This document shows, piece after piece, positions 42,701 to 60,700 of a stretch of 64,000 nucleotides of DNA (its first letter is position 1; every line of letters begins with the position of its first letter). A program made the translations under genes and the position numbers. This stretch comes from Owenia fusiformis. Lineage: Eukaryota. The notes beneath the pieces are model-generated. The model did not search any database, was not told the DNA's origin, and saw only the letters and a list, made by a program, of their open reading frames with translations. The stretch is from NCBI GenBank assembly GCA_903813345.2, contig CAIIXF020000001.1, positions 3,286,001 through 3,350,000 of the forward strand, read 5' to 3'.

Positions 42701-45700
42701 GGTCTTCACGTAAACAGATGTCAGGATTAAAATTATGTTTCCAATGTTTCCCCAGCCCTTAATTCTGTATTCTGATCTATGGATACAACTCTATAAAAAA
42801 TGGTTACTATGGTTACCTGATGATTAACCCTCTCTGTATACCATCCGCTATTTTAGTTCCCAAGTGAGCTACATCAGCCTAGAGTATAGGTTTACAATAT
42901 AAATACCATGGCAACGAAACTGAACTAAGCATCAAACATGCACGAAAAGTGTCTCAATAGATCAATCATAAGGAAGAGTAAATTCACTTGCCTTTAATGT
43001 ATGAGGTTTTTATACTTGCATATCTGTGGGTTGAACTACTGGATATCTTTTTATATATAAAGGATTTGAAATTAATTGAAAGCCGTATAAGATTTACATA
43101 TGCTTCTGATATTTAATCTATTGAGACCTTAAGTGTGCAACTGTTAAACTGCTCATGCTAAAACAAAGTCTAAAATAATGTGTGTATTATTCAGACTTGA
43201 AAAACACTCATATTACAAATAGCTATGATACATCTATAATACAGGTACATAGCAAAACATTCATGGTTTGCAGAATCCAAAAAACAACCTATGTAACATG
43301 CATGCATGAAATAACATATGTCAGAAGAGGCCCGATGGCACAAATTAATATACGTGTTGAAGGGTGAATTTCATGAAGCAAAACAACATAGGATTCAACA
43401 TCTGAAAGAGATGACAGTACAACATATGGTGGTATACAAACAAATTGGAAACATGCTTCATAAAGAATAAGGATCTAAGCTGATATGAGACAAGACTCAG
43501 GCTCCATTCTTCATGACCTACAAGCTGTGTATATTTATGACATTCCAGGGAAACATATATACAAGCATTTCGATAATAATATTAGCTATAAAAGAATCTA
43601 AAATACATTAATAAAGGAAGGATTACAAATTGAAACGAAAATACTAGATGGCTATTTACCCCCAAAGTAAATGTGAATGTGTTCATGAATTCAATACAAA
43701 AATGATATGCAACAAATGCCAATTTTATGCCATCAAGGGACACTTGATTACTCTGTTGATTTTTAATAGGCCTAGCTTTTAAGGTAGGCCTTGACTGTGC
43801 AGAATAAGGAATATGACAAGACCTCCACATAGACTTTTTACATAATGACTTGATTACTACTGATGTTTTTGGTCCTTAAGTTTCACAGTCTGCCAATCAA
43901 TCATCAATTTAAGAGTTTTATCATTGTTAGAGACAACTCTTAAAGCTCCTAAATTTAGCACACTGCCTCCCTTTATGCTATTGATTTTTAAAAGACATGA
44001 ACACATGGCATTACCCTGGGGGTACCTGTGTTAGTTAGCCTACCTAATTATAAGACCTCTCTGAATCTCATCCTTAATCTTGGCTCTCATGTGAGCCACA
44101 TCACCCTATATTCATATAGCACAACTCGGTTAATGTAAGCCATAACACGGTGTATAACCCAAACGCTCCTACATGCACGACGGAGCGTTACATTTACGCG
44201 GAAACGCTCCGGAGCGAAATAAAATGGCGGCTAATGAAGATTCTACTATGACCGTAAGTATTGTTTCTCTCATTTCTCTTACATATCATATGTCATGGTA
44301 AAATATTATGTACCATTCGATGAACAATACCGTGAGCAAAGATCTTATTTATTCAACTTCTGGTGGTAAACTGTTATTTGCTTGATCAAAGCTCCGTAGT
44401 GTAGATCGAACGAATCTGAAGATGACGATTTGACCACAAATTACGAATTAAACTAGTATTTCTATGAAAACGTTAATCTTTCTGTTTATGTAGTAGATAA
44501 CAAACTCGTATATTCTCATTTCCTAAAATCCCAGTCCAAATCCATTACTTGTTCTCGAGAAATCGCTTGTTTTCCTCGAAACGCTCCGTCGATTTAGACC
44601 ACAATTTTAGAAACGCTCTTACCATTTTGTTTTGATATCATTTTCAGATTATTAGAGAAGAGTTCCGAATCGAATCTATCTCTCAAAAACGTGTTGTACT
44701 TGTTAGGCAAATTGAAACAACTGAACCTGGTGGTGCTAAACGTGCAACTAGCTGATTAAAGCCTATAGATTAGATGATGTCATGCCTACATACATGTATG
44801 TGCTAAATCATAAAACTATAGAAAAAAACGAAAAGTTATACCGTATTATCTCTAATAAAGGCACACACTCCAATAAACGCACACCCGAATTTTCCAAGAA
44901 AGACTGGCCAATTGAAAAACAAAAATCAAGAAAAAATATAATTTATTCGAGCGGGCGTTAATAGGGTAATATTGAATTATTCACTTACCGCTATCGATAG
45001 AGCCGTTTGTGAGTATAATGCTGTTACAGACGTGTCTAAGGAATCTTATGAGCTATAACTACGTTCATGATAACCTTATAGTGATGAGTTAAAAGCTATA
45101 ATGAACGTTAATTCGGGCCCGTCGCCATTACTCAAACTCGCAGTGCATCATGGGCGTTCAGATCTATAAATATTCTTCTGCCCTTTCCCATAAACAAATA
45201 TTCAATCCTTTATAAATGTTAAGTAGCATTATATGGATATAAAACATATTTTCACCAACTATGAGGACCATTCAGATACAAGAAGCCTTTAGATTTTGAC
45301 TCGGGTATCGGTGTCAATTTCCAAAATGGCGCCTGCTCGGAGCAATTGGAGTGGATGTTTATCATCAATATCGATGCGTATAATGTCAATTAACCCACGG
45401 AAACACATTCAGCAGATTGATAAATGCATGAGGAAAACATTGAGGTACGATAATATGTTATCTAGTTGGAGTGAGTCTAGTTTTAAAGAGGAAAATCATG
45501 AAACACCCTATTATCGCCCAACTTTTTTTTACAAATCCCCGGGGATTTTGTCATTTGAGACATCTCCTCCAGGAGAATTTGGTAGACGCACTGTGCGTTT
45601 ATTGGAGAGAATACGGTATGTGAATTAATCTTTCTTCTATTGATGCCAAAGGGTATAATAGATCTTTTCTTTCTCTTCCTGAAAAGGAAAGGCAAGCTAT

Positions 45701-57700: not shown

Positions 57701-60700
57701 TTGTTGACATTTTAGAGCTAAACAAGACATTACTTATTAATAGAAAACTATATCCTGATTGCTAAAACCAATAAAAGTGCAATGCTTTACCAATGCATTG
57801 CCTAGTATTATAAAATAGGTTAAAATAAATCATGCACCAAACAACCATGCTAAAAATATCTCCGAAGTCTAATAAACTTATACCAAAGCACCATATTATG
57901 CTACGATATTAATTTTAGAATGTGTTTATTGAATAATGACTGCAAAACCTATGAAGCAATATAAATCACAATCGTAAAGTCTAGCTGCTATACAGCCATG
58001 CTGTGTATAGTTCTACACAACAGCACAATATTCACCCAAGATGAGTCCCTGGTGATGTATATGATAACCTTACCTTCTGCACACCATTGGCAGTAATGGC
58101 CTTGCCTGCCATATCAATAGCTCCTTCGGCTATAATAACAATATTCAATCTCTGGCCCATCACTCTCTCCTGGAAGACCAGCACCAATATGCTTTATCTC
58201 AACTAATACACACAATTCTAACACAAGATCATTGAAAAGCTGATGGACTTATGACAACACATAAACCAAACATTGACCAGAAATCATATGAGTCAAAATC
58301 ATTCTAAAATATGAAATTTGAAATGCTTACTTTGACTTATTCTTTGTGTCATTTAGATATTTGAAAGTGCAATTCTGGCCTTGTAGATTTATGTGTGGAC
58401 AATTGGTATCAATTTTGCAATTGATATCACCTAAACAGGACCTATAAAGGACCTAGATAGAACCTAGACATGACATAGACTTGAACTAAAACAAACGTAG
58501 GAACAAAAACAACACAATCCCTGTTGCTAGCATGTGGTCATTTTGTAAATCATGAGCAGCCTATACAACATGAAACAAGTCTCATTTAAAAAAGAAAAAA
58601 TAATTCTGATAACAGATTCAAGACTATTGTTTCTCACTTTTTTCATGATATATAGGATGAACATTATCTTCATAATCTGCATCATGATTTATGACCACAA
58701 CTTTTTGCATAATTGAATGAATGCCTTCTTTTGTCTAAGCTCAACATTTAGTTGAGCAAATCTCAGGAATTTTGCATGATTCTTATGCATTGATATGTAA
58801 CCAATTGTTGATCCAATAGAAAGCATCCTATCTTATGCCAAACAGTTGATGAGACTGACAGCTACCTCAAATCTGCCAAACAATGCATTAAGTTTAACAC
58901 AGTTTTTGTAACACAAGCCTTTAAATGGCATCTTTATTCTTTTAACTTGCACATTTATAGCTTTTGTCAAGAATTTATGTGTTACATTAATTCATTGTTT
59001 TAGCAGACTTGATTTGCAGGAAACGAAAGATGATAGAACACATGAACACAAACAGATAGAACACACATATACTAAAGCAGGAAAGCAAGCAGGGTTTATA
59101 ACTAAAACATCACAAAGGAGGCATGGAGCTCCCATCATCCTTGAACTTACATCTTTTACTAAATTAGCTGTGATTTTATTCCCATCACTATCTTGGGCTC
59201 CTTCTGCGACGATGATGATATTTAGGCGATAACCTAAAGCTCGTTCCTGAATACATATATATGCAGACAAACATAACAGAGGGGTCGCTGCTTAATAAAT
59301 AGCAAAACATGCGCAAAATCAGCAGTTAAGGGAAAGTGCCTTCTTTTGACTTTTTAAAATTGAATTCAGTTATAAGTACTAGATGGCTGAACAGTGAAAT
59401 TATGAATTGAAAATTACCAAATATTTGGTTAGGTATACATATACTTATTCTTTTTATCTAGTTATTTTTAGCTCATTTCTCAATCATCAACATTGGATTT
59501 TGCAAATTAAATCAGTTCCATTGAATATGTTCTAATAAATCTACTCAAAAAGGTATTCTGTTTAGTGAACTCAGTTTTTGCAAAGCAAGTTTTTATTTGA
59601 CATCATGAGTCCTTAAAGGCCCAATATAAAGTTTAAACCACTTTGGCTTATATTGTAGTCTTACCCAATGTTATCAAAGTGTGATATGTGAAACTTTTTT
59701 TTTAAATTTCAAAATGTGGTTTTTGATAAACTTTTTGTTCCAAAATTTGTGAATTTATTTAAAACCAACTTTTAGAGGTCACTCATACCTTCTAATTAGC
59801 CACAATTCATACCAATGCATAGCATTCATCCTCCCGTGTTTTTTGCCGAAAAATTAAGAAAATCGGTTCATAAATAAGCGAGAAATGAACTTATCAGTGC
59901 ATAAAAATGGTTCTGAGAAAAATGCATTTCAAAATTTTAGTTCTCATAGAAACCAATGGTACAATGATATCTAAAACATAATTTATTCTTCCTTTTAACT
60001 TGGTTAGACAATCAAAATTGGTTTTTTATGAAAGTCTAACATATTTAGAAAAGATTAACATCGAAAAATATTTCAAAATGTTTTTGGTACCTTAGTGACA
60101 TCACTAATGTTTCAAAATATTTTTGATATGCTAAAACATTGAAGTGGCCTATTAAATATGGCATTTTATTATTGAAATAGTGTGTCCTTTGTTCAATCTT
60201 TGCATTGGTGTTAAAAAGATAATCTTTTTTGAAATGCATTAAGAAATATTTGATGATTAAGAAATTTCAATTTTTTTTGAAAAATGGCGGGAAATTTGAA
60301 TATTTGAGAAATGAAATGCTCACAACTTTTTTATTCAAAATCTTTTTTGTTCAAAAATCTTTTAAAATTACTTTTTAAGTCCTGACAAATAGTAAATGAA
60401 TGATTAAAAAATATTTTTAAACTTTAGACGGGGACTTTAACTTGCACATTCTAGCTTTTGTATGGTTTTCTTTTCTAAAGCAAAATAAATATATAGTCAT
60501 GAGTCACTCAAAAAACAAAGGCATTCCCTTTTGAGAACATGCTTGCTAATGAGATTGCTAATAGCATAGAATCTGCATGTAAGCTGCATATTGCAGTATA
60601 AACAATACTGTAAGTGTTATAATCTAAGACTTCTGAAATAATATTTAAAATAAATGTTTGATGGCTAGTGTGAGATCTTATGTTCCTATGATGGGTGTGC

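Follow-up and report, generated by a model that had tools for sequence, protein, structure and literature searches.

The 64-kb stretch of Owenia fusiformis DNA considered here, the whole of which is called the window in what follows, carries on its minus strand the ATP-dependent 6-phosphofructokinase (PFK) gene of this annelid, in which three coding exons are present in two or three paralogous copies. The 100-residue translation of one exon of the window is 100% identical to a protein of 818 residues (P0001), which the sources name Owenia fusiformis ATP-dependent 6-phosphofructokinase and which carries a precomputed Pfam PF00365 assignment; it is the one Owenia PFK among the best 120 protein matches listed. 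According to tblastn, residues 89-818 of this protein are placed on the minus strand from 63610 to 39717 (95-100% per aligned piece), and residues 1-88 fall outside the end of the window. About 755 residues align with the structures of human PFKM, PFKP and PFKL (E = 0). Furthermore, two homologous halves are present in the one chain: the internal local alignment joins residues 52-365 with residues 445-737 (score 299), and cross-matches between the N-half and the C-half were also retrieved by tblastn. The gene encodes a eukaryotic PFK-1 of the PF00365 family and of the tandem-duplicated type, with a catalytic N-half and a regulatory C-half.

An earlier note on this DNA had described one PFK locus with three clusters of paralogous exons in the span 42817-59246, which runs from the low end of exon C2 to the start of exon A1 and represents the part of the gene with duplicated exons (Table 1). 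Coordinates and frames were recomputed, and the copy lengths that it gave, i.e., 96/96 nucleotides (nt) for A1/A2, 97/160/91 (all 3n+1) for B1/B2/B3 and 62/62 for C1/C2, were recovered together with the matching phases and the canonical splice sites. All seven exons have an AG acceptor and a GT donor, are stop-free in the frame of the gene and share an identical phase within each cluster; the paralogous copies follow one another directly, without an intervening coding exon. The donors of B1 and B2 proposed in the earlier note resulted in being the best frame-keeping GT sites, according to a rough home-made score. Exon B2 ends in a 34-codon tail without a homologue, which lies inside a 91-codon open frame. 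The constitutive exon directly upstream of cluster A, present as a single copy in Owenia, corresponds to the exon that forms a two- to three-way mutually exclusive cluster in arthropods.

Table 1. Coding exons of the Owenia fusiformis PFK gene in the window, in the order of transcription; residues are those of P0001, and the last column gives the score of the cluster exons against the PFK family profile described in the text.
Feature	Position	Strand	Length	Residues	Remarks	Profile (bits; E)
Upstream exons	61836..63610	-		89-232	tblastn and profile	
Constitutive exon	61197..61352	-		233-284	directly upstream of cluster A; 5' border good to about 2 nt	
Exon A1	59151..59246	-	96 nt, 32 codons		spare, absent from P0001; phase 0-0; acceptor ...tattcag/G, donor GAT/gtaagt	36.3; 3e-10
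Exon A2	58074..58169	-	96 nt	285-316	used in P0001	38.4; 7e-11
Constitutive exon	55903..55995	-		317-347	tblastn, RNA joints	
Constitutive exon	55438..55628	-		348-411	ends in phase 2	
Exon B1	55159..55255	-	97 nt (3n+1)		spare linker exon; donor TTC/gtgagt	5.2; 0.81
Exon B2	54570..54729	-	160 nt (3n+1)		spare linker exon; donor GTG/gtacga	9.6; 0.038
Exon B3	52827..52917	-	91 nt (3n+1)	412-441	used in P0001; linker between catalytic and regulatory halves	24.1; 2e-6
Four constitutive exons	48820-48674, 48466-48305, 47853-47701, 47374-47210	-		442-650		
Exon C1	44044..44105	-	62 nt (3n+2)		spare copy	15.6; 6e-4
Exon C2	42817..42878	-	62 nt	651-671	used in P0001	15.6; 6e-4
Last four coding exons	39717..40939	-		671-818	through the stop codon	

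The exons A2, B3 and C2, joined in silico, yield exactly residues 233-708 of P0001, and over this tested part all 12 combinations with one exon per cluster are open (476-499 residues). Conversely, the inclusion of two, three or no B exons, or of two or no C exons, led to a frameshift and stops in 7/7 cases, and the frame stayed open with both A exons and with neither (2/2 cases). Since the B copies are 3n+1 and the C copies are 3n+2, only mRNAs with one exon per cluster encode an enzyme as far as B and C are concerned; the exclusivity of cluster A is not imposed by the frame, because 96 nt is a multiple of three. The mutual exclusivity suggested in the earlier note would thus be enforced by the frame for B and C, of which a productive mRNA would need one each, but not for cluster A, the choice of which is frame-neutral. 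The number of up to 2x3x2 = 12 enzymes is an upper bound drawn from frame logic: every one of the combinations is open, but the listed spliced contigs (see below) show A2-B3-C2 as the dominant form.

The spare copies can be recognized by similarity. Probing the whole 64 kb in six frames with P0001 by tblastn retrieved A1 (E = 2e-5), C1 (0.004), B1 (0.045) and B2 (0.077), each in the expected intron, strand and phase. A profile was then built from 151 non-Owenia PFKs of 700-900 residues, out of 200 proteins, and searched against the 3511 six-frame open reading frames (ORFs) of at least 12 residues; at E<5 it retrieved 21 PFK-like pieces, all on the minus strand; these were the four spare exons (A1, B1, B2 and C1) and the 17 exons of the P0001 path, without any further match. 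The weakest of the copies are B1 and B2, with similarity and constraint confined to their first ~19 codons. The amino acid identity is 19/32 for A1/A2 and 14/20 for C1/C2, and over the shared part of the B exons it is 10/19 for B1/B3 and 9/19 for B2/B3; the nucleotide identity among the copies is 42-70%.

The pattern of these differences is that of coding sequence. A1 and A2 share 54% nucleotide identity, with 44 of the 96 nt differing and 26 of the differences at third positions, and the proportion of differing synonymous sites (pS) is 0.99 vs 0.30 for nonsynonymous sites (pN); for C1 vs C2, pS is 0.71 and pN is 0.18 (ratio ~0.09). When the observed number of nucleotide differences was scattered at random, 20000 trials gave the observed amino acid identity 0 times for A and for B2 vs B3, 8 times for B1 vs B3 and 6-14 times for C. 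None of the four spare exons has suffered a stop, an indel or the loss of a splice site. Neutral drift can be rejected, because synonymous sites are saturated while replacement sites are far from saturation, without indels or stops. Purifying selection on the spare exons is, on these sequence comparisons, well supported, and both members of A and of C were translated and under selection for most of their history. Neutral evolution of the spare copies, the outcome that the earlier note had set against its own proposal, is thus not what we found: pS/pN, permutations and profile scores show constraint, and tblastn, profile and permutations agree on one PFK locus with three clusters of paralogous exons. 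A full 32-residue A segment is present in 113 of 120 proteins; compared with these, A1 (0.53-0.78) and A2 (0.50-0.75) show much the same closeness to other species, and neither defines a type that recurs in them.

The use of the exons was checked on RNA contigs from four runs (X9, X10, X11 and X6, from two studies, out of 11 runs listed, of one organism and none of them recorded as RNA), mapped to 42000-61500; such contigs lose rare isoforms, and the statements made here cover the contigs and joints listed. Since the seven listed GT-AG joints sit at predicted exon borders, the contigs derive from spliced RNA. Joint 42877>47209, which connects C2 to the upstream exon and skips C1, and joint 52916>55437, which connects B3 to the upstream exon and skips B1 and B2, were each found in 4/4 runs, as were the joints between the four constitutive exons (47374>47701, 47852>48304 and 48464>48672) and joint 55627>55902; joint 55995>58074, which involves A2, was found in 3/4. 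According to these data, the dominant mRNA is A2-B3-C2, the same as in the annotated protein.

The sole sign of a spare exon among the listed contigs is record 20 of run X9, a contig of 330 nt with a depth of 4.6 vs 64 for the main contig. Its letters 30-330 map to 58945-59245, that is, A1 plus 206 nt of the following intron; the match ends within 1 nt of the A1 acceptor, and the first 29 letters, which are those beyond this acceptor, do not match the adjoining intron. The record fits with the use of the A1 acceptor. Small, unassigned RNA-contig depths were present in the bins around B2 (X10, X6) and A1 (X6). As a separate observation, the open frame of A1 extends by 52 codons beyond the exon, into the intron (59151-58992, minus strand), a stretch that X9 record 20 enters and that may be due to chance (about 2% by our own estimate for the base composition).

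On human PFKM, cluster A corresponds to residues 250-281, cluster B to ~377-398 and cluster C to 607-627. Both A copies have the AEG motif, the Glu of which is, in the bacterial enzyme (E222 of E. coli PFK), a fructose-6-phosphate ligand, and the segment preceding the motif corresponds to the basic residues of the bacterial effector site. In that segment A1 and A2 show three differences only (V/A, M/L and Q/Y, the last being Q in most homologues), with flanks and AEG motif identical. The bacterial effector site was equated by Lynch et al. with their site 3, to which they ascribe an activating as well as an inhibitory role (PMC11345425). When the two halves are aligned with each other, cluster C (residues 651-671) falls on residues 276-297 of the N-half, i.e., the end of the arthropod alternative exon and the start of A; consequently, the helix-strand element that varies is the same in A, in C and in the arthropod cluster, whichever half it belongs to. 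The end of cluster B corresponds, by residue mapping, to loop 390-400 of human PFKL, which the same source places beside nucleotide site 2, with adenosine diphosphate (ADP) in the R state and adenosine triphosphate (ATP) in the T state (PMC11345425).

Isoforms of other animals were compared in 21 sets of same-species or same-genus PFK proteins. In seven insect species, the isoforms differ only by a swapped segment at Owenia residues ~249-284, with three alternatives in two Diptera, and three of the six decapod species have the same swap (Owenia residues 251-284). Linker inserts at Owenia residues ~433-443 are present in all six decapods, in the turtle PFKP set and in Littorina, and Mercenaria has inserts of varying length at residue 490, where the Mytilus and Dreissena proteins also carry one. 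Littorina has, moreover, a micro-insert at residues 670/671, and one Babylonia protein likewise. The Stegodyphus and Babylonia sets were rejected as isoforms, since their proteins differ all along their length and represent different loci; they were excluded from the isoform argument.

Tandem internal copies were found in 19 of the 200 PFK proteins scanned. Four lepidopteran models carry them at the arthropod position and 12 turtle PFKP models in the 'PATVSNNVPG' exon; one Mytilus coruscus model has three copies in the same region as the turtle PFKP, and one Paragonimus and one Plectus model have them elsewhere. The three copies of the mussel model (P0128, residues ~563-630) are near-identical and lie in the exon region of the vertebrate PFKP homologous pair; they represent either a mussel exon cluster or an artefact of annotation or assembly. 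Further PFKP models of excess length, from lamprey, lizards and fish, come first in one list of protein matches and are candidates for such copies.

A search of metagenome contigs with P0001 retrieved 12 loci, one of which (L012) represents genomic DNA of an annelid-like animal, with the other exons 88-97% identical to P0008, the nearest transcript-derived protein. It harbors two tandem B-type exons, 492-579 (88 nt) and 2515-2605 (91 nt), ~1.9 kb apart, both 3n+1 and both with AG at the acceptor and GTGAGT at the donor; their profile scores are 16.2 and 21.7 bits, and they lie upstream of the exon for residues 443-491, 7.4 kb away. The linker of P0008 resembles the first type, and those of Capitella and several others resemble the second. 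A protein search with an L012 exon gave no match above 79% identity, so that transcripts of the L012 animal itself are absent from the collection searched. Judged from the two B-type exons, cluster B exists, or has arisen twice, in a second annelid lineage. Two further loci, L001 (10001-12277) and L002 (10001-12271), on metagenome contigs of 25 kb and 116 kb, appear to be PFK-1 genes without introns; over ~760 residues they share 65% identity with the Owenia protein.

Taken as a whole, the locus is best read, with a probability that we put at roughly 0.6, as a PFK gene with three clusters of mutually exclusive type and a strongly dominant default isoform. In this scenario, three exons have been duplicated in tandem and retained as alternatives (two A, three B and two C), and splicing of the mutually exclusive type would place one exon per cluster into the mRNA; for cluster A, exclusivity would come from splicing control or from the intolerance of the protein to a doubled or missing AEG strand. 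A2-B3-C2 is the default, and A1, B1, B2 and C1 would be minor choices, specific to a stage, a tissue or a condition. The swapped pieces fall at regulatory hot spots, namely A with the Glu of the AEG motif and the segment before it, C as its equivalent in the regulatory half, and B as the linker by the nucleotide site; because of this placement, the isoforms are expected to differ in allosteric behavior and not in chemistry, that is, in their allosteric constants.

It might be argued that the extra exons are not real and reflect chance similarity or an artefact of the assembly, for instance haplotypes left uncollapsed or a wrongly joined duplicate. The copies are short, and the tblastn values of B1 and B2 are marginal. 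However, copies with 42-70% nucleotide identity are too diverged for haplotypes, each one sits in the correct intron, strand and phase with AG/GT borders, the permutations reached the observed identity in 0-14/20000 trials, the profile finds these pieces and the P0001 path only among 3511 ORFs, and the independent contig L012 repeats the arrangement for B. This explanation is close to refuted and has a very low probability.

A more serious alternative is that the spare exons are relics, long used and now silent or nearly so, which at most give unproductive 'poison' inclusions (for instance two B or two C exons, or A1 together with the intron after it) lowering the PFK output by premature stops, with A2-B3-C2 as the only combination that makes enzyme. 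Several results weigh against the use of all seven exons, and some of them speak for the relics. B1, B2 and C1 are in none of the listed contigs of the four runs (two studies), which bounds their abundance and is not proof of absence; those contigs hold only A2, B3 and C2 among the spliced forms, in 4/4 runs, as does the single annotated protein. The only A1 contig runs through the A1 donor and keeps the downstream intron, and double inclusion of B or C leads to early stops. B1 and B2 fit the PFK family profile poorly (E 0.81 and 0.038), the B2 donor (gtacga) looks weak, and the C1 acceptor has a weak pyrimidine tract and, 41 nt upstream, the end of a transposon-like element. Around no cluster did we find a convincing docking/selector RNA pairing, the only pairs being short A/T-rich ones and transposon terminal repeats. 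As to other species, no isoform swap touches cluster A, the start of B or cluster C in the 21 sets (two of them different loci), tandem copies at A, B or C occur in 0/200 PFK proteins, and L012 has one C-type exon only (12576-12641). Finally, the constraint tests are unable to separate a live exon from a recently silenced one. Nevertheless, the four spare exons are free of stops, indels and splice-site losses; an outside profile scores A1 and C1 on a par with the used copies, replacement changes are far below synonymous ones, two intact B-type exons have been kept in a second annelid-like genome, and the runs are few and available as contigs, which lose minor isoforms. We therefore regard the relic explanation as rather unlikely, although far more probable than an artefact.

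PFK-1 sets the glycolytic flux and is a textbook allosteric enzyme, and vertebrates diversify its regulation with three genes (PFKM/L/P). If the spare exons of the three clusters are used, Owenia would offer a natural set of chimeras, in which the sugar-site strand with its preceding segment, the twin of this element in the regulatory half and the linker by nucleotide site 2 are exchanged; a comparison of the isoforms would reveal the share of each element in the inhibition by ATP and in the activation by adenosine monophosphate (AMP)/ADP and fructose bisphosphate. It would also be a multi-cluster case outside arthropods, where few genes with more than one mutually exclusive cluster are listed in all, and would imply that tandem exon duplication struck PFK repeatedly, at different and structurally related places. 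If the exons are silent, they are still a clean example of long-preserved duplicated exons. In its widest form, the proposal is that one annelid gene retunes the committed step of glycolysis by three independent exon clusters (up to 12 isozymes), with A and C in the same element, the arthropod cluster one exon away and B shared with another annelid lineage, so that PFK would have been a repeated target of exon duplication, replacing gene duplications of the vertebrate style; we advance this only tentatively, at less than even odds.

Some repeats and one neighboring frame of the window complete the picture. The intron upstream of C1 holds an element of ~2.1 kb (44146-46223) bounded by terminal inverted repeats of 49 nt with 98% complementarity (44146-44194 and 46175-46223), which looks like a DNA transposon. 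Its RNA-contig depth is 54-150, vs 32-64 on the PFK exons; some of the contigs lack an internal 778 nt (joint 44838>45617) and are ~2% different from the window, and because of these differences they probably derive from other copies. The intron between B3 and the next exon contains tandem units of 148 nt (51371-52216; 4.9 copies, 94% matches), followed by 23 copies of (CGGA)n at 52502-52593. In the bins with these arrays the summed RNA-contig depth is about 750 to 31,000; since this far exceeds the depth of the gene exons, they likely represent a repeat family expressed elsewhere. Just downstream of C2, the region 42000-42650 is repeat-rich, with a 52-nt unit in 2.1 copies, an RNA-contig depth of 1,200-23,000 and many irregular joints, and is probably a dispersed repeat. 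Lastly, an open frame at 886-1167 on the plus strand, met through a weak chance match of tblastn (E 0.88), belongs to a neighboring, putatively Hsp70-like gene.

The earlier note had left to the literature whether such clusters are already described. PFK mutually exclusive exons are known in Drosophila and in human PFKP, at other exons. The literature search, supplements not being covered, gave nothing on alternative exons of PFK in annelids or molluscs, nor on Owenia PFK; the sole paper naming both 'Owenia fusiformis' and 'phosphofructokinase' resulted in being unrelated in content and was discarded.

The closest known system is the arthropod one. Drosophila Pfk is listed among the genes with a three-exon mutually exclusive cluster (PMC6071210, PMC8373072), and it shares with the Owenia gene the enzyme and the presence of tandem homologous exons of equal size in one gene. 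The arthropod swapped segment (Owenia residues ~249-284) adjoins cluster A and corresponds structurally, across the two halves of the protein, to cluster C. Unlike Owenia, however, arthropods have one cluster, at an exon that is single in Owenia, whereas Owenia duplicated the next exon (A), the linker (B) and an exon of the regulatory half (C); moreover, the arthropod isoforms are annotated from transcripts, whereas the Owenia alternatives are known here from genomic copies.

Other cases are more distant. Human PFKP has a homologous exon pair (PFKP-203/-205) differing at V539I among others, near the allosteric sugar site (10.1101/292813, PMC9741552), and is thus alike in being a PFK gene with tandem homologous exons that alter a residue near this site. 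The turtle models place the PFKP pair on an exon equal to Owenia residues 544-596, which is single in Owenia, and PFKP differs in having one cluster of two exons, in one of three paralogous genes. In PKM, the choice of one of two homologous exons (M1/M2) switches the allosteric behavior of a control enzyme of glycolysis (10.1101/292813, PMC11030362); unlike Owenia PFK, it is a different enzyme with a single cluster, the expression and function of which are fully documented. Mutually exclusive homologous exons of equal length are also reported to retune metabolic enzymes of hypoxia-tolerant invertebrates, annelids among them, namely coq-2 (a/e) in helminths, annelids and molluscs (PMC7434440) and, with a duplicated exon, oyster AOX (PMC5589949); they differ from Owenia PFK in being unrelated enzymes with one cluster each, and a link of Owenia PFK to hypoxia is a conjecture. 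In conclusion, alternative homologous exons of PFK are known from arthropods and from vertebrate PFKP; new in Owenia are the positions and the number of the clusters, as well as their occurrence in an annelid.

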